This document shows positions 995 to 63,112 of a stretch of DNA of 64,000 nt, piece after piece; positions within the stretch are counted from its first letter, which is position 1; each line of letters opens with the position of its first letter. Made by a program: the position numbers and the translations under genes. The stretch spans positions 52,778 to 116,777 of the forward strand of contig MELE01000027.1 of assembly GCA_001768615.1 (NCBI GenBank), written 5' to 3'. Under the pieces are notes generated by a model, which did not search any database, was not told the DNA's origin, and was given only the letters and a program-made list of their open reading frames with translations. Source of the stretch: Acidobacteria bacterium RIFCSPLOWO2_12_FULL_67_14b. GTDB lineage: Bacteria; Acidobacteriota; Vicinamibacteria; Vicinamibacterales; UBA2999.

Positions 995-3429
995 TATTGC
1001 TGACTCGTCGTCGTCCTGGGTTTTGCGGCCTTCGCCCACTCGTTGGCCCAGTTCAACATCTCGGCCACGGTGTGCATCACCGATTCACGGGCGACGTAGC
1101 CGTGCGCCTCGTGCGGCAACGTGACGTAGCGGACCGTCGCCCCGTGGCCCTTCAGCGCGCGATAAAACCGCTCCGACTGGATGGGATAGGTGCCGGCGTT
1201 GTCGTCGGCCTCGCCGTGGATCAGGAGGATCGGCTCCTTGATCTTGTCGGCGTGGTTGAACGGCGACATGCGCGAATAGAGCTGCGGCACCTCCCAGAAC
1301 GTGCGGTCCTCGTTCTGGAAGCCGAACGGCGTGAGCGTCCGGTTGTAGGCGCCGCTCCGCGCCAGGCCCGCCCGGAAGATATCCGAGTGCGCGAGGAGGT
1401 TCGCGGTCATGAACGCGCCGTAACTGTGGCCGCCCGCGACCACGCGATCGCGATCGACGACGCCCATGTCGACGGCCTTGTCGACCGCGGCTTGCGCGCT
1501 GGCGACGAGCTGCTCGACGTAGGTGTCGTTGGCGGTCTCACCCGGACCCACGATCGGCATCTTCGGATCGTCGATCACCGCGTAGCCCTGCGTGAGGAAG
1601 AGCATGTGCAGCGTGCTCCATCCCGGCGTCGTGAAGCGGTACTGCGATCCGGTGACCTGGCCGGCGAGCTTCGCATCCGTGAACTCCTGCGGGTACGCCC
1701 ACAGCAGCGCGGGCAGCCGGCCCTGCGCCGGCGTCCATCCCGGCGGCGTGTAGATGGTGGCGCGCATTTGCACGCCGTCCTTGCGCTGGTAGGTCACCAT
1801 CTCGGCCTTCACGCCCTTCATGGCCGGCGCCGGATCCTTATAGGTGCTGAGCGGACGACGGCTGGCCGATTCGCGGCCGCGCACGTAAAGGTTCGGCGGA
1901 TCGGTCCGGGTCTCGTACCGCGTGATGAACTTCGATCCATCGTCCGAGAGCAGGCCGACCACCGGCTCGTACGATCCTTCTTCGGTCTGGAACAGCCGTT
2001 CCTTGGCCCCGGTCTTGATGTTGACCTTGTCGAGGAAGGGACGGTCACCTTGCGGCGATGAGCCGACACCGGCGAGGTAGACGCTGTCGCCAACCTGCAG
2101 CAAGGCGTCGGTGCTGGACGGACGCGCCTGGCGCATCGGCGTGCCCGGGTTGGCGTACGAATCCTCCGAGCTCCGCTCCGACAGCTTGCGCGGCGCCGCG
2201 CCGGGGGCATCGATCACCCACGTGCGGGTCAGCTTCGTGTCGCGATCGTTCTCGGTCAACCACACCGCGCCGGCGGAGGTCCACGTGACGCTCTGCACGC
2301 GCAGCTCGGTGCGGGTCAACTCAGCGGGGGTCACGGCAAACGGCGCCGTCCACGTCATCACCTTGTCGCGTTGAGGCACCTTGTTCTTCGGGTCGCCGCC
2401 GTCGAGCGCTTCGGTCCACGCCACGGTGGCCGGCTGCGTCGGGTGCCAGCGCCAGAGGCGAGGCCCGGGCAACACGGCCCCGCGTGCCAGGTTGTCGGCC
2501 AGCGGCAGATCCGCGAGCGGCTTCACCAGCGCTCCGCGCCGATCCCAGATCTCAACCGAGCTTGGGAACGACCGGTAGGGGACGAGCCACGAGAAGGGCC
2601 GCTTGACCCGCTCGATGAGCATGTACTGGCCGTCAGGCGACGGCCTGAACTCGCTGTGGATCGCGGGCTTGCCGATCGGCGAGCGCTGGCCGGTGGCGGC
2701 ATCGACCGCCGCCAGCTGGCTCGTGGCGTAGTACTCGAACAGCGCTTCGTCGTGCACGCTCCCGAGCATGTCCTGCACGGTCGCGGCCGGCGCGGCGCGG
2801 CCGCGGTTCTCCTGGATGTTCGGACCGCTCGGCACTTCCGCAGCCGCCGGCGCAGGGCCGCGGCCGGCGTTGATGAACGCGCACAACAGCGACGCGCCCT
2901 CGCCGATCCACGCGCACGGCGTGCCCAGCGACGCATTCAGCTGCGCCGGCGTGATCGCCCTGGCCTGGCCGGTGGCCGTGTCGCCGATCCACAACTCGAT
3001 GCCGTTCTCGCGCGTGTTTGTGAACGCAAGGCGCCGGCCGTCCGGTGAGAATCCAATCCAGCTGATCGCGGGGGTGGCCGGCAGCGTCACTTTCCGCTCG
3101 GCGCCGTCGGCGACGACCTTGAGCGTGAGATTGCGATAGCGGTTGTTCAGGCGATGCGGGCCATTGGTCCGCGGGTTGATGCGCAGGCCGGCAAGCCGAT
3201 GCATCGGCTGCGCCAGCTCGGCGATAGACGGGAACGGCGCGCGTTCGAGCAGCACCACCACGTCCCGCGAAGGACTGAGCTCGGCCGTTGGCGGCGGCGC
3301 CGTGTCGAGAATGTCGACAATCTCCTTCGGCGGCAGCAGATATCCGGATGCCGCAGGCGCGGTGGGCGCCTGCGCGCCGAGCGTGACCGATCCGACGATG
3401 GCGACCAGGGCGAGAACGACTCTGCGCAT
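994..3429 (-). CDS. S9 family serine peptidase (prolyl oligopeptidase-type, N-terminal beta-propeller), secreted
   Basis: 811-aa ORF with signal peptide MRRVVLALVAIVGSVTLGAQA, nucleophile motif GGHSYGAF, and AAGGAG upstream of the ATG. Confidence 0.9.
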   Translation of the reverse strand: MRRVVLALVAIVGSVTLGAQAPTAPAASGYLLPPKEIVDILDTAPPPTAELSPSRDVVVLLERAPFPSIAELAQPMHRLAGLRINPRTNGPHRLNNRYRNLTLKVVADGAERKVTLPATPAISWIGFSPDGRRLAFTNTRENGIELWIGDTATGQARAITPAQLNASLGTPCAWIGEGASLLCAFINAGRGPAPAAAEVPSGPNIQENRGRAAPAATVQDMLGSVHDEALFEYYATSQLAAVDAATGQRSPIGKPAIHSEFRPSPDGQYMLIERVKRPFSWLVPYRSFPSSVEIWDRRGALVKPLADLPLADNLARGAVLPGPRLWRWHPTQPATVAWTEALDGGDPKNKVPQRDKVMTWTAPFAVTPAELTRTELRVQSVTWTSAGAVWLTENDRDTKLTRTWVIDAPGAAPRKLSERSSEDSYANPGTPMRQARPSSTDALLQVGDSVYLAGVGSSPQGDRPFLDKVNIKTGAKERLFQTEEGSYEPVVGLLSDDGSKFITRYETRTDPPNLYVRGRESASRRPLSTYKDPAPAMKGVKAEMVTYQRKDGVQMRATIYTPPGWTPAQGRLPALLWAYPQEFTDAKLAGQVTGSQYRFTTPGWSTLHMLFLTQGYAVIDDPKMPIVGPGETANDTYVEQLVASAQAAVDKAVDMGVVDRDRVVAGGHSYGAFMTANLLAHSDIFRAGLARSGAYNRTLTPFGFQNEDRTFWEVPQLYSRMSPFNHADKIKEPILLIHGEADDNAGTYPIQSERFYRALKGHGATVRYVTLPHEAHGYVARESVMHTVAEMLNWANEWAKAAKPRTTTSQQ

Positions 3430-9320: not shown

Positions 9321-9367
9321 AAAGAGACCACGAAGACCACGAATTCGTGATCTTCGTGGTTTCTCTT
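9321..9367. repeat. ACCACGAAG-word hairpin element, copy 1
   Basis: AAAGAGACCACGAAGACCACGAA|TTCGTGATCTTCGTGGTTTCTCTT, centred on GAATTC and preceded by TTGATCAAAGAG. Confidence 0.9.
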
Positions 9368-36231: not shown

Positions 36232-36338
36232 GAGACCACGAAGTTCACGAAGATCATCACGAAGACCGCGAAGCGCCTCTTGCTCAAAATGCCTTCGTGA
36301 TCTTCGTGGTTGCCTTCGTGATCTTCGTGGTTTCTTCT
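36231..36338. repeat. ACCACGAAG-word hairpin element, copy 2
   Basis: AGAGACCACGAAGTTCACGAAGATCATCACGAAGACCGCGAAG, loop, then CCTTCGTGATCTTCGTGGTTGCCTTCGTGATCTTCGTGGTTTCTTCT. It lies between convergent genes and touches both stop codons. Confidence 0.9.
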
Positions 36339-37660: not shown

Positions 37661-37736
37661 AAAGCAAACCACGAAGGTCACGAAGGCTTTAGATCAACTT
37701 GTCTTCGTGATCTTCGTGGTCTTCGTGGTTGTCTTT
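37661..37736. repeat. ACCACGAAG-word hairpin element, copy 3
   Basis: AAAGCAAACCACGAAGGTCACGAAGG, loop ctttagatcaacttgt, then CTTCGTGATCTTCGTGGTCTTCGTGGTTGTCTTT. Confidence 0.9.
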
Positions 37737-38499
37737 AGCGCCGAATCGACACACTGCCGCTGAACGTCTTCAACCTGAAATCGCCCGCGCCGCCGCCGTT
37801 GAGCGATCCGCGGAAGTTGCGGCGGCTGCTGGTGGTCAGCGTGACCGGCAGGTCGCTGTTGAAGTGGCCGCTGAAACTATTGAAGTCGATTTCCCCTCGC
37901 GCGCTCGCCGGCAGCTGCAGCGTTACGTCGCCGCTGAACGTGTTGACGTCGATGTTGTTGCCGTCGGCCCACTCGGCGGCCTCGATGCGGATGTCGGAAC
38001 TGAACCCATCGATGTCCTGGTTCCCGTTCACGCCGGTCACGGTGACCGGCGCGCTGAACGTCTTGAGGTCCAGCCGCGTGCGGGCGGGGACCTGGATCTC
38101 GAAGTCGGTCTCGACCACGTTGTCGTTGCGGCGCTCGACGATGCGATGGTTGGCGTCGACCTCGATGGTGCTGCCGCTCTGGGTAATCTCGAGCTTGATG
38201 TCGTCGAGCCGGTCCTTTCTGGCGCGGCGGACGGCGTGGATCACGACCTGGTCGCCGGAGCCCCCGGTGATGCGCACGCGGCCCGAGAAGGTCTTCAGCC
38301 GCAGCGTGCCCCCGGGCTGCAGCGTGAGCGTCCGGTCCACGGTTTCCGTGTTGGTCTGGGCCGCCCCTTCGGCTCGGCTCGGTCGCGGTGCGACCGACGC
38401 CTCGCTCAGGGCAGGCAGCGGGGACGCCAGGACAAGGGCGAGTAGCAATGTGTAGGGACAAACCTTCAGGTTTGTCCAAATCGAGCGGGTCATGGTCAC
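37735..38499 (-). CDS. DUF4097-like putative adhesin (beta-helical repeats), secreted
   Basis: Signal peptide, then repeated motifs TFSGRVRI / TFSAPVTV / TFSGDVTL / SFSGHFNS / TFSGSVSI. Confidence 0.75.
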   Translation of the reverse strand: MTMTRSIWTNLKVCPYTLLLALVLASPLPALSEASVAPRPSRAEGAAQTNTETVDRTLTLQPGGTLRLKTFSGRVRITGGSGDQVVIHAVRRARKDRLDDIKLEITQSGSTIEVDANHRIVERRNDNVVETDFEIQVPARTRLDLKTFSAPVTVTGVNGNQDIDGFSSDIRIEAAEWADGNNIDVNTFSGDVTLQLPASARGEIDFNSFSGHFNSDLPVTLTTSSRRNFRGSLNGGGAGDFRLKTFSGSVSIRR

Positions 38500-38539
38500 C
38501 TCGCAGAAAATAGACGAGACCGGGGCCCGGAGGGTTGCC

Positions 38540-38854
38540 GATTGCAGATTTCGCCGATCTCAGATCTCAGATGTGCCTTCAGCCTCTAAGTTATTGATGA
38601 ATAAGGCCCAACAGGATGGCACCAGGGCGGCTTCTTGTCCGGCCATGACTCCAAAGGAACTCAAAGACAGGACCAAGCGCTTCGCCATCGATGTGATTCA
38701 TCGCGAAGATTGGGATCGTGCTGGAAGAAGCAGGCAGATGAGCTGACAGCAATATTCGTTTCATCACTAAAGACCGCCAAGAGGTGATAGTCCGACCAAT
38801 CTGCCATCTACCATCTGAAATCGATCTGCAATCTACCTTCCGAAATCTGCAATC
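38540..38854. repeat. inverted CAGAT-word arms (perfect 14-bp GATTGCAGATTTCG / CGAAATCTGCAATC) enclosing a gene remnant
   Basis: The left arm 38540..38553 and right arm 38841..38854 are exact reverse complements. Additional words (GATCTCAGATCTCAGATG versus CATCTACCATCTGAAATCGATCTGCAATC) flank them. Confidence 0.85.
38645..38787 (+). pseudogene. decayed four-helix-bundle protein gene (TIGR02436 / S23p-IVS / Avd-like) with internal deletions and frameshifts
   Basis: Three frames read MTPKELKDRTKRFAIDVIH, then KIGIVLEEAGR*, then ADELTAIFVSSLKTAKR*. These match, from memory, the N-terminal, EEADE and C-terminal TAKR signatures of the family. Confidence 0.6.
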
Positions 38855-40458
38855 GTCTTCAGCTCCGCGAGATCCTTGTCGGCCGAAGCCCAGCCCTTGA
38901 GGGCGAGGCCGAACTCGCGCTTCGCGGTGGCGGCGTTGCCGTCGTGCTCGGCGACCAGGGCCAGGGCGTAGTGCGTGCCGGCGTAGGCCGGGTCGTGTTC
39001 GAGCAGCAGCTGCGCCATCCGGCCCGCGAAGGTCCAGTCGCCGACGTCGCGCGCGGCGCGCGCCATCGCTTCCAGGCGGAACGTCGACTGGCTCCACGCA
39101 TCCGGCCCCGGCAGCGATCGCCATTTCTGCGCGGCGCGCTCCATGACCTGCCGGCCCTTCTCGCGCTGCGCGGTGCGCAGCAGGAACTCCCCCTGCAGCT
39201 GCTCGAGCGCGATCGCGGCCAGGCCTTGCCCGCCCTGCGCACTGCGCAGCGCTTTCAACGCCGCATTCGACGCGGCCGCCGCGTCACCGGGGCGCTTGGT
39301 GGCGAGCAGCGCAAAGCCGGCTTCGATGTGTCCCGTCGCCTGGACCACGAGGTTCGGATGCGCGACGAGGATCCTGGCCGCCGCGAGCGCTTCTTCGGGC
39401 CGGTTGCGCGCCAGCAGGAACATCGGCCACTCGCGCTTGTTCACCGCCTGCACCAGCAGGTTCGACGACAACGCGAACGACTGCTTCAGCAGCGGCTCCG
39501 CTTTCCGCACCTGTCCGACGTATTGATACGAGGCCGCAAGCAGGTCGAGATTGTGCTGGTGATGCCAGTCGAACTCGGCCGGGATTTTCTCGCTGCTGAA
39601 GTAGGCGCGCTGCAGGCGGTCGGCCGCCTCGAATTCGGCGATGGCGTCGGCGGGGCGGCCCGTCCGCCGCAGCTCGTGTCCGTGCATGTGTCGCGCATGC
39701 GGGATCGCCGGCGCCTGCGCCGCATACGCAGCCGCGTGCGCGAGCGCCTCGGCCATGCGTCCGCCGTTCTCGGCCGCGTGCGCCAGGTAATGCCGCGCCG
39801 CGAAATGGTCCGGCGCCACTTTCAACGCGCGCTCGTAAAACGGGATCGACGCCGCCACCGACCCCTGCCCGCGATCGGCGGGATCCGGCGAGGCCGCCAT
39901 GCCGCGCTTCAACAGCAGCTCGACGTCGGACGGGAATGCCACGAGCGCCGCATCCAGGGCCGCGCGATACGGGGGCAACTTGCTCGCGTCGCCGGGCGCG
40001 TCTTCGGCGGCCATCTGCAGCGCCCGCGCCTCGATGTGCCGCCGCTCATGATCCGACACCTTCGGTGCCATCGCCCGGGCGCGCTCGATCGCCCGCCGCG
40101 CATCCGCGGTCAGGTTCAGCTCGATGTAGGCGTAGCTCAGGCCGACGTCGGCGAGCGCGAGTCCCGGATCGATCCTGAGCGCCTGGTGAAACGATCGCGC
40201 CGCTTCGATCCAGACGAACGAATGCAGGTAGGACAGTCCCTGGTCGAAGAAGGCCTGCGCGTCGGCCGATGCCGTGGTGACCGTGTCGTGCGAGACGCCG
40301 ATGCCCGCGTGCACGGTGACGGGGCGCTCGAGCAGCTCTTGCGGAACGACGGGCAGGGTGTGTTGGGCGTGCTGCGCCCAGACAAGGCAGAAGGCAGAAG
40401 GCACAAGGCAGAAGTACGAGGACAAAAGGAAAAGGCAGAAGGAAGAAGAGCGCTTCAC
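38833..40458 (-). CDS. TPR repeat protein, probably secreted
   Basis: 541-aa ORF with a GTG start, a repeat-encoded signal-like N-terminus MKRSSSFCLFLLSSYFCLVPSAFCLVWA and multiple TPR-like helices. The last residues, TIADFGR, are encoded by the repeat arm. Confidence 0.75.
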   Translation of the reverse strand: MKRSSSFCLFLLSSYFCLVPSAFCLVWAQHAQHTLPVVPQELLERPVTVHAGIGVSHDTVTTASADAQAFFDQGLSYLHSFVWIEAARSFHQALRIDPGLALADVGLSYAYIELNLTADARRAIERARAMAPKVSDHERRHIEARALQMAAEDAPGDASKLPPYRAALDAALVAFPSDVELLLKRGMAASPDPADRGQGSVAASIPFYERALKVAPDHFAARHYLAHAAENGGRMAEALAHAAAYAAQAPAIPHARHMHGHELRRTGRPADAIAEFEAADRLQRAYFSSEKIPAEFDWHHQHNLDLLAASYQYVGQVRKAEPLLKQSFALSSNLLVQAVNKREWPMFLLARNRPEEALAAARILVAHPNLVVQATGHIEAGFALLATKRPGDAAAASNAALKALRSAQGGQGLAAIALEQLQGEFLLRTAQREKGRQVMERAAQKWRSLPGPDAWSQSTFRLEAMARAARDVGDWTFAGRMAQLLLEHDPAYAGTHYALALVAEHDGNAATAKREFGLALKGWASADKDLAELKTIADFGR

Positions 40459-40489
40459 AACGCCATTCTGCCTTCTGCCTTCTGCCTTG
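40383..40489. repeat. GGCAGAAGG-word hairpin: perfect 21-bp inverted repeat (40383..40403 and 40469..40489) with 65-nt loop
   Basis: CAAGGCAGAAGGCAGAAGGCA and its exact reverse complement were read directly. The loop contains more GGCAGAAG words and the GTG start at 40458. Confidence 0.9.
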
Positions 40490-40492
40490 TTC

Positions 40493-43400
40493 TTAGAAGC
40501 TGAGGTGCGCGCCCAGCTTGAAGAACCGGTGCTGCAGGACGTTGGTCGGACGCAGCCAGCTCGCCGAGGCCGCGTTCGAGTAGGTGGTGCTGACCGTGTA
40601 GGGCCAGCTGCTGTTGAACACGTTGTAGAGGTCGAAGTCGACCCGCATCCTCACCTTGCTCATGGTGAACCGCTTGGCGAGACGAACGTCGAGCTGATTC
40701 AGGTTGTGATCGCCATACTCCGTGCCTTCGCTGATCAGTTGGACCGTCCGTGACGCGACACCCGTCCAGGCGCGGCCGATCTGCTGCGTGGCAACGGCGT
40801 TGGTCACTGCCCAGCCCGCCGTGACACTCGGGCCGGCCCCGCCATTTTGCACGCCGCGGGTGAACTGGTAGGTACCCGCCAGTTGAATGTCGAATGGCAG
40901 CGTGTACGAACCGGACAGCTTCGCATCCGGCCGGTACCCGTACTCCCGGTGGCAGCCCTTCGTGCCATCCGCGTAGATCTCGGTGCTGCCCGCCGGCACC
41001 GCATCGTTCCCCGCCGCCAGCACGTTGCAGTTGTCGAACGTGCGCGAGGTGGCCGCGATGCCGCCCCTCAGGAACGCGCCGTTGCGGAAGCGCGACTCGA
41101 GGTTGATGTCGAAGCCCTGATACAGGTTGGTCTCGCCGCCAAAGTCGTCCGAGAACCGGATCAGGCTGTTGGCGGGCTGTCTCAGAGCGAACACGGCAGG
41201 CTTGAGGTCCTGGACGCCGCACACCTGGAAGCCGCCGCCGCCGGGCAGGTCCGGATCGACCGGCGCCGTGATGCAGTACGAGTCGTAGCTGTTGGCGTCG
41301 AAGCGGAGGTCGTCGACGATCGTCTGGTTGCCGAAGGTCCGGCGATAGTAGCCGCCGTTGACCGAGATGCGGTCCGCCAGCTGGTGCTGCATCGCGAAGG
41401 TGACCTCGTTGTTGTAGCCGCGCGCGCCCCAGCCGTGGAGCACCTTCGGATCGTACTGCGTGGTCGGCACGGTGAGGCGTCCGAACGTAGGCGTCGCCGC
41501 CGAATTGGTCAACTCGTTGAACTGGATGTTGCCGGCGCTATCGAGCGGCAGCCCATTGCCGTCCAGGTCTCTCCACGGCCGGGTGTCCAGCGCGGTGAGC
41601 GCGCCGATGGGGTTCACCTGGTTGGCCACCGCAATCTGCTGGCCCGCCACGTAGCGCGCGAAGCTCGCCTTGATGGCGGTGCGGCCGTTGCCGAACACGT
41701 CCATCGCGAAGCCGACGCGAGGCGAGATGTCCTTCCAGTTCTGCACCGTGCCGGCGCACAGGTCGCCCGGATCCCATTGGCCATCGTCGCAGACACCGAA
41801 GGTGGCGCCGCCGCCGTGGCGGCTCGCCAGAATCGAGCTCTCACGCGATTCGCCGATGAACTGGTCGAAGCGCAGGCCCAGGTTCAGCGTGACGCGGCCC
41901 AGCGACCAGCGGTCCTGCACGTAGAGGCCAAGGTCGCGCTTGATGCCGTTGTTGCGGTCGGACGGCAAGCGGAGCGTCACCTGCACCGGCACGCCGTTGT
42001 TGTAGGTGATGGGCTGCATGTCGCCCGTCCACCGCGTCAGGAGTTTCCAGTCGCCGTTGCTGAACGTTGCGCCGGCGCGGAAGCTGTGCGAGCCCGCCAC
42101 GTACGACGCCGCGCCCATGAAGGTGCGGAGCACCGAGTAATGGTCGGCCGGGTTGGGCCAGGCGTTGGCCTGCCGGTTGTTCGAAGCATCGACGACGTTG
42201 TAGACGCGCGCGTTCTGAATGGCGTTGTCGTCCCACACCTTGTCTTCGGAGCCGGTCACGCCCGGCTGATAGAGCTCGGTGTAGTTCTGGTTGTACATGC
42301 CGAAACCGGCTTCCAGCAACAGCCGGTTGGTGTGCGTGCGCGTCCACTTCGTGACGTTGACGAAGCTGGTCGGGGTCACCTGCACGCCGGCCGCCTCGGG
42401 CGGAATCGTCGCCGCGATGCCCCAGTGGTTGCGGTACTTGCGCTGGTTGTCGTGATACACGGAGATCTTGTCGTTGGTGCTCACCTGCCACGAAATGCGT
42501 CCCGCGTTGCTGGTGATGTGCCCGTCATCGATGCCGGGCTTGGTAAAGTCGGGCGCGTAGACGAATTGCGATGGGTTCGAGTCGAAGTAGGCGTCGGCCT
42601 TCGTCTTTTCCGAGCCCCAGTTCCGGAAGGTGTAGTTGAACCACACCTTGTTCCTGATGATGGGACCGCCAATCTGCGGGTTGATGTCCCAGATCTTCTG
42701 GATCACGTCGACGTTGGTGAGCGTGTTGTTCCGGTTGAACGTGGTGCTGCCGCTCAGGTTCGACCGCGTGCACGGCTGGCCGATGCCGGCCGAGCCGCAG
42801 TTGTCGGAGCCGAACGACTCGCCGGCAAAGTTGCCGATCACCATGCCGCGGAACGTGTTGCCGCCGTCCTTGGGCACCATGTTGACGCGCATGCCGCCCT
42901 GGCCCATCTCGGCCGAGTCGGCGCCGGTCACGTAGCTGAACTCCTCGAAGCTCGAGTCGTTCCAGTAGACGCCGCTGTAGGCGCCCTGCGCGCACAGGTT
43001 ATTGAGGCGGATGCCCTCGACGGTCTGCACCGTGTCGCCCGAGCCGCGATACTGGAGCGGCGACTGCTGCAGGTTGCCTGAGCCGCCGACGTCGCGCGAC
43101 AGCGCGCCGCCGCCGCCCACCGCGATGGTGGTGCCCGGGATCATGATGCCGACCGCCTGGATGTTGCGGCCCGTCGGCAGCGCCTCGCGCACTTCCGCCG
43201 TCATCACGACGCGTTGGGTGATGCTCTGCGTGTCGACGATGGGCGATTCGCCGGTGACCGTCAGCGTTTCTTCGAGCGCGCCGACCTTCAGGTCCACGTT
43301 GATGGTGGCCGTGAAGTCCGACGTCAGCTCGATGCCCTGGCGGACTACTGTCTGGAAGCCGGGGAGCGTGAAGGTTACGGTATAGGTTCCGGGCCGAAGC

Positions 43401-48733: not shown

Positions 48734-48749
48734 CTCTCTATTCTATAAG

Positions 48750-48879
48750 GGTGCTTGGGTGCTTGGGTGCGTGGGTGCTTATGTGCGCACCTACGCACCT
48801 ACGCACCTACGCACCTACGCACCTACGCACCTACGCACCTATGCACCCACGCACCCACGCACCCACGCACCCACGCACC
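48750..48879. repeat. about 16 consecutive 8-nt units: GGTGCTTG-type x4, CTACGCAC x6 (perfect), CTATGCAC, CCACGCAC x4
   Basis: Read directly. The left units are the reverse complement of the right units. G3N5 x4 motifs occur on the + strand (48749..48775) and on the - strand (48846..48872). Confidence 0.9.
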
Positions 48880-48887
48880 TTGTTCTT

Positions 48888-55788: not shown

Positions 55789-55871
55789 GATCAAAGGAAA
55801 CCACGAAGAACACGAAGATCACCACGAAGATCACGAAGTCTATTGATCAAAGAGTTCTTCGTGGTCTCTGT
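55789..55871. repeat. ACCACGAAG-word element, copy 4, inside the his operon (hisG-hisD gap)
   Basis: GATCAAAGGAAACCACGAAGAACACGAAGATCACCACGAAGATCACGAAG, loop tctattgatcaaagag, then TTCTTCGTGGTCTCTGTTT. The arms are unequal (4 words versus 1). Confidence 0.9.
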
Positions 55872-60877: not shown

Positions 60878-60965
60878 AAAAGAAACCACGAAGATCACGA
60901 AGCACCTCGAAGAACACGAAGTAATCTCTTCCGAACGCATTCTTCGTGGCCTTCGTGGTTTCGTT
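60878..60965. repeat. ACCACGAAG-word hairpin element, copy 5
   Basis: AAAAGAAACCACGAAGATCACGAAGCACCTCGAAGAACACGAAG, loop, then TCTTCGTGGCCTTCGTGGTTTCGTT. Confidence 0.9.
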
Positions 60966-60968
60966 AGA

Positions 60969-63053
60969 TCACTGTTGCGCCGTGGTGGTCACGCCGGGTG
61001 CGCGCTTGTACTTGTCGAACCAGTAGCGCAGGTACAACTGCGTGCGGATGAAGTTCGACGGCGTCGTCGTCGTGCCGTGCCATTCGTTGTTCATCCGCAG
61101 CATCGCGGTCGGCACCTTGCGCAGCTTCAACGCGCTGTAGAACTGCTCGGTTTGCGGCATCGGCGTCCGCAGGTCCTGCACGCCGGTCATCAGCATGGTC
61201 GGTGTCTTGACGTTGCCGACGTAGCTCAACGGCGAGCGGCGGAAGTGCTCGCTGGGATCCTCCCACGGCAGCTTCGCAAAATTGTTGTACCAGCCCGCGC
61301 TGTCGGTGGTGCCGACGAAGCTCACCCAGTCGATCACGGGGCAGTTGGCCGACGCGGCCGCGAAGCGATCCGTCTTGCCGACGATCCACGCCGTCAGCAC
61401 GCCGCCGCCGCTGCAACCGGTGACGAACATGTTGCGTTCGTCGATAAAGCCCTTCTTCAGCAGCTCGTCGACGCTGCCCATCAGGTCGTCGTAGTCCTTG
61501 CTCGGATAGGCGTTGTTGATCTGGTTGCCGAACGCGCTGCCATAGCCCGTGCTGCCGCGCGGGTTCGAGTAGAGCACGACGTAGCCGTTGGCGGCGTGCT
61601 CCTGCCAGCCGTAGTTGAAGCCGACGCCGTACATGCTGTGCGGCCCGCCGTGGATGTGCAGCTGCATCGGGTACTTCTTCGTGGCATCGAACCCCGGGGG
61701 CGTGATGTACCAACCCTGGATCTTCAGGCCGTCCGCCGACGTGTAGGTGATCTCCTTGACGTCGCCGAGCTTCTTGCCCTTGAGGATGTCGTCGTTGACC
61801 CACGTCAGCTGCTTGATCTGCTGCGGTGAGGCGATGTCGTAGGTCACGATGTCCGGCGGCGCCTGGAACGACGTGGACACGCCGACGGCCTTGCCGGTCT
61901 TGCTGATGCTCGTCGTCGTGAGCATGTGCGTGCCCTTCGTCACCGGCTGAACGGCATCGCCACGCGTGCCGGCCAGCGGCAGCACGTAGAGGTTCTGGAC
62001 GCCGGTGTCCTGCGCGGTGAAGTACAGGCCCGTGCCGTCCGCCTTCCACTGCAGGCCCTGTGGCGAGCGGTCCCAGTCGCCCGAGACCAGGCGCGGATTG
62101 CTGCCGTCGACGTTCATCACGTACACCTTGCTGTCGGTCCAGGTGTTGCGCGAGGCATCCATCCCCGTATAGGCCACGAGCTTGCCGTCGGGCGAGACCT
62201 TCGGTCCGTTGTCGGGACCCTTGCGGCGCGTCAGCTGCGCGATTGCGCCGGTCTCGACGGTGACGGCATAGATTTCCGATTCCCGGAACTCGTAGTCGGC
62301 GTCGGGAATGCGCAGCGAGGTGAAGAGGATCTGCTTGCCGTCGGGCGTGAACTCGACGCCGTTGTGATCCCAGTCGCCACTAGTCAGCTGCCGCGGCGTG
62401 CCGCCGGTGGCGGGCACGACGAACAGATGCCTGAACCCGTCGTCGTTGAAGCCCTGGCGGTCCTGGCGGTAATCGAGCCGTTCGACGATGCGGGGGGATT
62501 CGACCCACTTGGCGCCTTCAGGTCTGTCGGGCATCTTGATCGACCAGACGTTCTTCTTCTCGACCTGCATGGCGAAGGCGAGCGACTGGCCGTCGGGCGA
62601 CCACGTCACGTTGGCGGGCGACTTGTCGATGTGCGTCACCGGCGAGATGGCGCCTTCGGCGTCCATGTAGCGCACGAAGATCTGGGAGCCCTTCGGATCG
62701 CCCTGCGCGGTGTAGGCGATGCGATCGCCCGAGGGCGACCACCGCGCGCTGCTGCCGCGCACGAGGAAGCGGTTCCTGCTGCCGTCGGCGTTCATGATCC
62801 ACAGAGACGACTCACGCTTGTCGTTGACCTTGTCGATCCACCCGCGTGTGTAGATGATCTGCGCCCCGTCGGGCGACAGCTGGGGATCGGACACGGTCTC
62901 GAATTCCCAGTAGAGGTCGAGGGTGAGCCGGTCGTTGGCGACATTATTCTGAGTAACATTATTCTGAGTAACATTATTCTGAGTAATAGTGTTCTGGGCC
63001 GCGAGCACGACGGGCAACGACGCAAGAGCGAACGCGACGAGCAAACGGCGCAT
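60969..63053 (-). CDS. S9 family peptidase with TolB-like beta-propeller, secreted
   Basis: ATG at 63053 (MRRLLVAFALASLPVVLAAQ) with GGGAGG upstream. Nucleophile motif GCSGGG. The ORF-track extension to 63464 overlaps vapC and is rejected. Confidence 0.85.
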   Translation of the reverse strand: MRRLLVAFALASLPVVLAAQNTITQNNVTQNNVTQNNVANDRLTLDLYWEFETVSDPQLSPDGAQIIYTRGWIDKVNDKRESSLWIMNADGSRNRFLVRGSSARWSPSGDRIAYTAQGDPKGSQIFVRYMDAEGAISPVTHIDKSPANVTWSPDGQSLAFAMQVEKKNVWSIKMPDRPEGAKWVESPRIVERLDYRQDRQGFNDDGFRHLFVVPATGGTPRQLTSGDWDHNGVEFTPDGKQILFTSLRIPDADYEFRESEIYAVTVETGAIAQLTRRKGPDNGPKVSPDGKLVAYTGMDASRNTWTDSKVYVMNVDGSNPRLVSGDWDRSPQGLQWKADGTGLYFTAQDTGVQNLYVLPLAGTRGDAVQPVTKGTHMLTTTSISKTGKAVGVSTSFQAPPDIVTYDIASPQQIKQLTWVNDDILKGKKLGDVKEITYTSADGLKIQGWYITPPGFDATKKYPMQLHIHGGPHSMYGVGFNYGWQEHAANGYVVLYSNPRGSTGYGSAFGNQINNAYPSKDYDDLMGSVDELLKKGFIDERNMFVTGCSGGGVLTAWIVGKTDRFAAASANCPVIDWVSFVGTTDSAGWYNNFAKLPWEDPSEHFRRSPLSYVGNVKTPTMLMTGVQDLRTPMPQTEQFYSALKLRKVPTAMLRMNNEWHGTTTTPSNFIRTQLYLRYWFDKYKRAPGVTTTAQQ
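62941..62985. repeat. three perfect tandem copies of the AT-rich 15-mer ACATTATTCTGAGTA inside the S9 peptidase CDS
   Basis: Read directly. It encodes (NVTQN)x3 just after the predicted signal-peptide cleavage site. Only 4 of the 15 bases are G or C, in a GC-rich gene. Confidence 0.9.
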
Positions 63054-63112
63054 AGAGCCTCCCAGGGCGTGCAGCGTTACCGTATGGAAGGTGGATTCTA
63101 ACGCGTTTTCGG

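Follow-up and report, generated by a model that had tools for sequence, protein, structure and literature searches.

A Probable Dead Copy of an Intervening-Sequence-Like Four-Helix-Bundle Gene Cassette between Inverted Word Arrays in an Acidobacteria Contig

The 64,000-nucleotide stretch of contig MELE01000027.1 from Acidobacteria bacterium RIFCSPLOWO2_12_FULL_67_14b (hereafter the window, the positions of which are used throughout) contains at 38539-38855 an inverted repeat with the broken pieces of a gene in its loop. The most probable reading, to which a probability of about 0.8 is given, is that this element is a dead copy of a cassette consisting of a left array of words of about 7 nt, a leader, a gene of about 120 codons from the TIGR02436/PF05635 (S23p/Avd) four-helix-bundle family, and the reverse-complement array, with a design like that of the intervening sequences (IVSs) of ribosomal RNA (rRNA). 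In these terms the window element is an S23p-type intervening-sequence element located outside rRNA, the arms of which are heptamer arrays.

Structure and Identity of the Remnant

The outer ends of the element form a perfect inverted repeat (100%) of 15 nt: CGATTGCAGATTTCG occupies 38539-38553, its exact complement occupies 38841-38855, and the two arms enclose 287 nt. The first-pass annotation, made from the letters of the window alone, had described a 14-bp perfect repeat with CAGAT-type words on both sides; this repeat is real and one base longer per side, and the bracketed length was given exactly. Loci with a perfect 15-mer inverted repeat and a loop of at most 600 nt occur four times in the window versus a mean of 0.3 in Markov-simulated windows, and the local arm score equals 30, while 123 shifted controls reach at most 26. 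The left arm (38539..38576, + strand) is a CAGAT-type word array, CGATTGCAGATTTCG followed by GATCTCAGATCTCAGATGTG, in which the first 15 nt are the perfect repeat arm and the extra words GCAGAT and GATCTCAGATCTCAGATG lie at 38545-38575; it can be aligned to the left arms of the cassettes at L111, L098, and L117 (L numbers denote the compared loci). The right arm (38797..38855, + strand) is the complementary ATCTG-type array, which holds five ATCTG words and has the perfect repeat arm as its last 15 nt, and in the RNA fold of the element it pairs with the left arm.

Inside the repeat three different frames are read, namely, MTPKELKDRTKRFAIDVIH at 38645-38701, (FI)AKIGIVLEEAGR with a stop codon at 38697-38741, and ADELTAIFVSSLKTAKR with a stop codon at 38734-38787, exactly the peptides quoted in the first-pass annotation, where they were assigned to the TIGR02436 family as an internally deleted, frameshifted remnant. 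Both parts of this assignment proved correct. The word-seeded search with the stitched pieces returned two proteins, P0002 and P0001. The former is a PF05635 protein that shares with the remnant the exact FIAKIGIVLEEA and ELTAIFVSSL.TAK (exact stretches of 12 and 10 residues), and it has 7931 relatives, those among the matches listed being without exception PF05635 "four helix bundle proteins", with lengths of 75-128 aa; the latter is another internally deleted remnant. A clade hidden Markov model (HMM) was built from 101 intact relatives with the window excluded and was run on all 1608 six-frame fragments of the window, where the three frames of the remnant took ranks 1-3, matching model positions 98-116 (E 4.4e-5), 61-72 (E 0.001), and 3-20 (E 0.04) colinearly within 140 nt. 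No further remnant was found by this model in the window, and no paralogue was found by tblastn of the fragments against it. Fragment 1 is identical to the L098 protein in 18 of 19 residues, and the intact proteins encoded at the same site in related genomes pass the curated cutoffs, with 74.6 and 77.2 bits for TIGR02436 in L111 and L117 (cutoff 24) and 47.3 bits for PF05635 (cutoff 33.8), and match the structure PDB 2RLD with E 9e-14.

The DNA alignment to L111, L117, and L098, by which the remnant was compared with intact copies as the first-pass annotation had proposed, places the three fragments colinearly with the intact same-site genes and maps two deletions. The left arm, the leader, and the ATG with codons 1-19 (MTPKELKDRTKRFAIDVIH; 38645..38701, +) survive, and after a gap of about 125 nt there follow 30 nt in the second frame (38703..38732, +), which encode AKIGIVLEEA from the centre of helix 3; a second gap, of about 80 nt, separates these from the last 17 codons, which lie in the third frame (ADELTAIFVSSLKTAKR; 38734..38787, +) and are followed by the original stop TGA at 38785-38787 and by the right arm. 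Both gaps shift the frame, about 48 of the approximately 120 codons are left, and no intact ORF of 110-130 codons is present. Judged from its sequence, the window gene is a dead member, a pseudogene, of the TIGR02436/PF05635 four-helix-bundle family.

The leader (38577..38644, +), delimited by alignment, contains box 1, CTAAGTTATTGATGAATAAGG, at 38586-38606 and box 2, TGGCACCAGGGCGGCT, at 38617-38632. In CAGAT-type cassettes it is characterized by TAAGTTrTTGATTC followed 17 nt further by TGGCAY-N5-sTGCT, and both boxes are kept in the window (38586-38632), L001, L088, L098, L104, L105, L108, L111, L117, and L141. The position weight matrix (PWM) scan with box 1 gave 14 matches in 486 kb, only in cassettes and their derivatives, while box 2 was recognized by eye only. 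The TGGCAY-N5-sTGCT box looks like either a sigma-54 -24/-12 element or a small hairpin, and cassettes of Terriglobia have in or beside the leader the palindrome TGTGAC-N5-6-GTCACA instead. The scan of 38400-38950 for sigma-70 promoters and intrinsic terminators found nothing, and Rfam indicated neither rRNA nor another family in the window, nor any family in four cassette loci.

The element occupies the intergenic stretch 38500-38832, where the G+C content is 51% in comparison with 67% in the window. It is flanked by two minus-strand genes, the DUF4097 ("toastrack") gene at 37735..38499, which is divergent from the remnant gene and syntenic in L086-L123, and the TPR-repeat gene at 38833..40458. 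The latter ORF ends in ...LKTIADFGR, so that, as had been claimed from the first reading of the sequence, its last codons (TIADFGR) and the stop codon lie within the right arm. The genes within about 3 kb to each side of the element encode MFS/Atg22, DUF4097, TPR, and TonB-type receptor proteins, and neither reverse transcriptase nor template/variable repeat was found among them.

Decay at One Site and Arrays in Other Phyla

Orthologous loci were collected by the metagenome scan with the TPR protein, which gave 80 loci, and the gene order TPR, DUF4097, MFS is retained in about 30 of them. At the TPR/DUF4097 site the intact CAGAT-word cassette is present in L111 and L117, where it runs, like the window copy, on the opposite strand from TPR, and copies with deletions other than those of the window are found in L098 and L108. 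In L088 the arms and the leader remain and the gene is lost; in L086, the closest relative (80% TPR identity), only the arms are left as a 70-nt hairpin. A different hairpin is nested inside the CAGAT arms in L093, hairpins of other words occupy the site in L087, L118, L094, and L123, and the site is empty in L090, L091, L100-L102, L107, and L112-L115. In empty sites the TPR protein terminates with ..ELAIAAKR, and AACCCT comes after the stop codon. The L108 locus has the same TPR end, with TAAACCCT on both sides of the element, and contains two copies of GAGCTG at a spacing of 38 nt; if these copies were joined by a deletion, exactly the ..ELKTIADFGR fusion of the window would result. From the L108 sequence we infer that the window TPR ORF was probably fused to the arm by such a secondary 38-nt deletion between the GAGCTG repeats.

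In L104, L105, and L141 (at about 2600-3400 in the latter) the segment formed by the cassette and DUF4097 is inverted in comparison with all other orthologous loci, and the cassette is intact in L141, carries a 1-nt frameshift in L105, and is reduced to the arms and the leader box in L104. These three loci were at one point taken for an independent insertion between DUF4097 and MFS ("site B"), which after rereading as the inversion was not counted. Since the endpoints of the inversion coincide with word arrays, mediation of inversions by the arrays is suggested.

Synonymous sites of the intact copies are saturated and the ratio of nonsynonymous to synonymous substitution rates (dN/dS) is 0.07-0.16, and for this reason the four-helix-bundle protein is regarded as being under purifying selection where it is intact; despite this selection the gene was repeatedly lost. 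The cassette is a long-term resident of the TPR-to-DUF4097 space in this lineage, and its decay proceeds from internal deletion to arms with leader and then to an arms-only hairpin. Arms, leader, and gene are inherited and diverge as one unit.

Two more observations concern cassettes of the same word type. P0001 (L001-L005; 2890-3230 in L001) belongs to an independent decayed cassette between the PBP1A gene and prfB, with the same words and leader box as in the window; its 56-aa in-frame ORF is identical in five soil metagenome contigs, and its GATCTCAGATTTCGGATC-type arms occupy the entire intergenic space from stop codon to stop codon. Beside the intact cassette of L117 (1281-2753) there are two extra ORFs, one of 93 aa (hydrophobic) and one of 115 aa, each of which lies between CAGAT-word arrays and thereby indicates that word arrays can bracket other cargo or nest; neither ORF had a Pfam or NCBIfam match.

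The question raised by the first-pass annotation, whether intact family genes are systematically flanked by inverted word arrays, is answered positively by a broad sample. With 20 intact proteins as query and one genome per species, 80 loci were obtained from Acidobacteriota, Planctomycetota, Verrucomicrobiota, Bacteroidota, Patescibacteria, Chloroflexota, Spirochaetota, Nitrospirota, and further phyla, and the 73 loci with both flanks, which come from more than 10 phyla, were used. At each locus the 200 nt upstream of the gene were aligned with a 200-nt segment that covers the stop codon and what follows it, taken as its reverse complement, and 391 controls of the same geometry were obtained by shifting along the same loci. 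The median complementarity score was 40 versus 16 in controls; 93% of the loci were above the control 95th percentile (exceeded by 5% of controls) and 66% were above the control maximum. For the arms the median length is 32 nt and the complementarity 88%, and the right arm overlaps the ORF end in 34% of loci. The word period is 7 in 38 of 68 loci, 8 in 10, and 9 in 2, while any periodicity was detected in 3% of random segments.

The words themselves vary by lineage (AGATTGC/AGATTTC, GGAATGC/GGAGTGC, CAGAAGT, ATCGGGTG, ATTGCCAAG). Sharing of arm 6-mers grows with protein identity, from 0.09 below 60% to 0.54 at 80% and above, and it is still 0.27 at an identity of at least 70% when the outer flanks are nonhomologous (background 0.085), which means that the words travel with the gene. 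The same architecture is found on named plasmids, among them pNPUN01 of Nostoc punctiforme with GGAAGTC/GGAGGTC heptamers and plasmids of Gloeocapsa PCC 7428, Planktothrix agardhii, and Treponema saccharophilum.

Some cassettes are wedged in defence loci, namely, L174 (Anabaena cylindrica pANACY.01), L173 (Planktothrix agardhii p1), and L172 (Gloeocapsa PCC 7428), the positions being between cas2 and cas1, between DISARM drmD and the MmeI enzyme gene, and between a DUF1156 gene and a HEPN gene. These positions are a possible reason for the scoring of "23S rRNA IVP" as CRISPR-associated (PMC10910872). The intact four-helix-bundle proteins gave no hit in PADLOC. Phages were also considered as a vector and are unlikely to serve as such, since 2.9 million viral contigs yielded only 5 loci.

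Besides the CAGAT element, the window contains about a dozen word hairpins, with words such as CACGAAG (five copies), ACACAGAA, AAGGCAG, GGGTGCTT, and CAGCCGT. The first-pass annotation had supposed that short-loop hairpins are deletion derivatives, MITE-like relics (a MITE being a miniature inverted-repeat transposable element), of units with a four-helix-bundle gene. For the CAGAT cassette this idea holds, as arms only (L086), arms with leader (L088, L104), and partial copies (L098, L105, L108, and the window) are all found; it is not borne out for the other hairpins of the window, in which neither a gene fragment (clade HMM) nor a leader box (PWM scan) was detected. The 37670-37730 hairpin has in its loop a look-alike, AAGTTGATCTAAAG, which requires a gap to fit the leader motif and was treated as chance. 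AAGGCAG/CAGAAGG-type words form the arms of intact cassettes in Terriglobia, and by this likeness a link of the AAGGCAG-type hairpins of the window to cassettes is possible.

The CACGAAG-type hairpins, all intergenic, are located at 9323-9364, 36233-36332, 37670-37730, 55797-55868, and 60879-60965, and that at 37670-37730 has orthologous hairpins in relatives, where the words have drifted (CACCGAGGA, CACGGAAA) and the arms are still complementary. The longest word hairpin of the window, at 48749-48880, opposes four copies of GGGTGCTT to about 12 copies of CGCACCTA/CGCACCCA with 95% match. At 40364-40515, in the space that separates the TonB-type receptor gene from the TPR gene, the C/T-rich arm of the AAGGCAG-word hairpin encodes the hydrophobic core of the TPR signal peptide (..SSFCLFLLSSYFCLVPSAFCLV..), and in TPR orthologues (L086-L113) the words are different and a hydrophobic stretch is still encoded by an array (FCLFLFCLLPFAFCL, LLTSHFSLLTS). 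The perfect 31-bp inverted repeat GGATGATTGGGGACAGGCCCCCATTTTCACA at 913-994, with a 20-nt loop, does not consist of tandem words and represents a different kind of element, and an A+T-rich perfect tandem repeat, three copies of ACATTATTCTGAGTA, followed by a 27-nt repeat in 2.1 copies, is located at 62941-63058.

Placement, Proposed RNA Excision, and Alternative Explanations

The upstream neighbour is co-oriented with the four-helix-bundle gene in 56 of 61 loci, or in 37 of 42 after collapsing of orthologous sites (p = 4e-7), while co-orientation of the downstream neighbour (37 of 61) shows a weak bias. The aligned core of the left arm starts at a median of 2 nt past the stop codon of the upstream ORF (interquartile range -8 to +9), and in 86% of cases the left arm starts within 30 nt of this stop codon. 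A terminator or a separate promoter would therefore not fit in front of the arm, and, being placed behind a co-oriented stop codon, the usual cassette is most simply transcribed as a 3' extension of the host mRNA. The window lineage represents a minority arrangement, in which the cassette is antisense to both neighbours and conserved boxes of its own are present in the leader. The four-helix-bundle protein is the sole product encoded by the full-length unit, which has no recombinase gene.

According to the proposed mechanism, typical cassettes are probably transcribed by read-through from the co-oriented host gene, and the arrays would pair in the transcript to form a stem of about 30 bp. This design would be shared with the 23S rRNA IVSs of Coxiella and Leptospira, the heptamer-built stem of which is cut by RNase III. 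Such a stem could provide an RNase III site by which the cassette RNA would be excised from the host transcript, and the excision would make insertion beside a host gene tolerable and would leave the excised four-helix-bundle mRNA closed by the stem. For copies outside rRNA the excision by RNase III from a host transcript is thus proposed by analogy.

Several observations weigh against this picture. The Pfam and NCBIfam profiles gave no family match for the three fragments, two ORFs, and the stitched 49-aa sequence, which is attributed to the length of the fragments, only 10-19 residues; the clade HMM recovered the three fragments, and the curated profiles, with which the first-pass annotation had proposed to search, did not. 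A lack of significant profile hits had been named in that annotation as a refutation, and for the curated profiles it was literally observed, but the homology is established by the other lines of evidence. G:U-type mismatches in the arms outnumber A:C-type mismatches by 104 to 85, which is not significant (p = 0.19) for pairing of the sense-strand RNA, and the repeats make the register ambiguous. The read-through model is not directly applicable to the window cassette, since it is antisense to both neighbours. The GATT core is found in 36 of 56 left arms across phyla, and CAGAT words persist in the window clade at saturated synonymous divergence; this conservation of words hints at sequence-specific recognition and not just a stem.

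The latter two facts would be expected if the heptamer arrays were iterated binding sites of the pentameric four-helix-bundle protein, either for its autoregulation or for a nucleoprotein complex of propagation, with the inverted symmetry being secondary. The regular 7-nt spacing agrees with these putative sites, and the related Avd proteins are known to bind nucleic acid and reverse transcriptase in diversity-generating retroelements (DGRs; PMC10053308). However, the arms outlast the loss of the gene in L086 and L104, and their complementarity is held at about 88%, which binding sites alone would not need; this explanation is quite improbable. It is also unlikely, to a somewhat lesser degree, that the arrays act at the DNA level as terminal inverted repeats of a nonautonomous transposon with a passenger gene and a transposase supplied in trans, the gene-less hairpins being its MITEs. 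Presence/absence polymorphism at the orthologous site fits a transposon, as do the arms that travel with the gene and the pair of TAAACCCT around the L108 element, which is single in empty sites and could be an 8-bp target duplication; this candidate is, however, the only one, with none evident in L117, L001, or the window. Moreover, no transposase is located beside any examined locus, a sequence-specific transposase would not tolerate arm words which differ so widely among cassette lineages, and the tight placement after stop codons together with the orientation bias is atypical of cut-and-paste elements.

A further explanation reverses the relation of arms and gene: word hairpins would be independent host or selfish elements, comparable with the short tandemly repeated repetitive (STRR) sequences or with hairpins acting as terminators or mRNA stabilisers, and the genes would insert into their loops, much as IVSs are located at rRNA helix tips. 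In that case the association would come from target choice, and the gene-less hairpins would be targets and not relics. The roughly 12 gene-less hairpins of other words in the window, which lack the leader motif and gene remnants, are in line with this, and so are the hairpins of drifting words that many relatives retain at the DUF4097-to-MFS site (window, L094, L123, L111), none of which has a gene in relatives of standard order, and the nested hairpins and other small ORFs between arrays in L093 and L117. Against it, the words co-vary with the gene phylogeny across nonhomologous sites, the gene-less forms at the window site keep the CAGAT words and junctions of the gene-bearing forms, remnants of the leader are found in L088 and L104, and the right arm often (34% of loci) encodes the protein C-terminus. 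This explanation is held to be rather doubtful, and the reading of the window element as a dead IVS-like cassette is retained.

Wider Meaning and Comparison with Known Systems

The TIGR02436/PF05635 family is very large, as indicated by 7931 relatives of one 75-aa query, and to our knowledge no role is known for it outside DGRs; heptamer arrays (STRR, GGGAATC) have stayed unexplained through decades of cataloguing. At the window site the whole life cycle can be followed of a cassette in which family and arrays are joined, and the site links both of them to the 23S rRNA IVSs. That four-helix-bundle genes are a regular cargo of inverted heptamer arrays across phyla, are located at stop codons, and decay to hairpins appears to be undescribed. 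The architecture, the placement 2 nt behind co-oriented stops, the purifying selection, and the decay to hairpins make up a testable model of a widespread class of elements which go unrecognized by the existing transposon, defence, and RNA-family libraries. The model accounts for "four helix bundle protein" genes wedged in operons, including cas2-cas1 and DISARM loci, and for arrays that encode termini of host proteins. As a tentative and much more speculative extension, heptamer-word hairpins and STRR-like arrays might all be the ends or relics of one pan-bacterial family of transposase-less cassettes with an Avd/S23p-type protein as the sole cargo, of which the rRNA IVSs would be the copies landed in rRNA; such cassettes would ride transcripts behind stop codons, be excised by RNase III, and propagate through a hairpin or RNA route with the protein as their own factor.

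Among known systems the DGR Avd proteins belong to the same superfamily of pentamer-forming four-helix bundles, whereas the window gene is free-standing between word arrays and has no reverse transcriptase or template/variable repeat nearby. With MITEs and repetitive extragenic palindromic (REP) sequences the cassettes share short gene-less intergenic hairpins, which arise by internal deletion of a longer unit, and presence/absence polymorphism; they differ in that the parent encodes no transposase or REP-associated tyrosine transposase (RAYT), the arms are tandem words varying by lineage, and a single uncertain target duplication (L108) is seen.

The STRR heptamers of filamentous cyanobacteria form hairpins between genes (PMC2670836), and GGGAATC arrays of Xanthomonas, among which there are 70-75 convergent pairs, were found by Rehm et al. 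to be generally not associated with mobile elements (PMC4692102). Like the cassette arms, these are intergenic tandem 7-nt units at many sites per genome, often in convergent pairs capable of forming hairpins. The papers make no link to four-helix-bundle genes, while in the present loci a gene cassette is bounded by the arrays at its two ends, also on named Nostoc, Gloeocapsa, and Planktothrix plasmids.

The closest counterpart is the 23S rRNA IVS with an S23p ORF, known from Coxiella burnetii, Leptospira, and Brucella (PMC4990558). In C. burnetii it is a 428-nt "selfish" element with the S23p (PF05635) ORF in the loop and with terminal inverted repeats that form a 28-bp stem cut by RNase III in the middle; two to three tandem GACAGAT heptamers, in strain-dependent number, precede the ORF, the 5' cut falls at the first repeat, and the ORF of one strain has lost 176 bp by deletion (PMC4990558). 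The first-pass annotation knew of no description of a link between word repeats and such genes; in rRNA this IVS combines the heptamers, the inverted repeats, and the S23p ORF, and outside rRNA the searchable literature, exclusive of subscription journals and database comment fields, yielded no paper that links intergenic heptamer arrays to PF05635 genes. The window element differs from the IVS by its location between protein-coding genes and not in helix 9, 25, or 45 of 23S rRNA, by arms that are longer arrays, and by the antisense orientation of its lineage to the neighbours, and cutting by RNase III is proven only for the rRNA copies. The likeness nevertheless extends from the PF05635 family in the loop to the terminal inverted repeats as a closing stem, the tandem heptamers that build the 5' arm in the window and the other cassettes as well, the CAGAT word of the window contained in GACAGAT of Coxiella, the G+C content below that of the host, the embedding in a host transcript, and the decay of the ORF by internal deletion with the RNA element staying in place.

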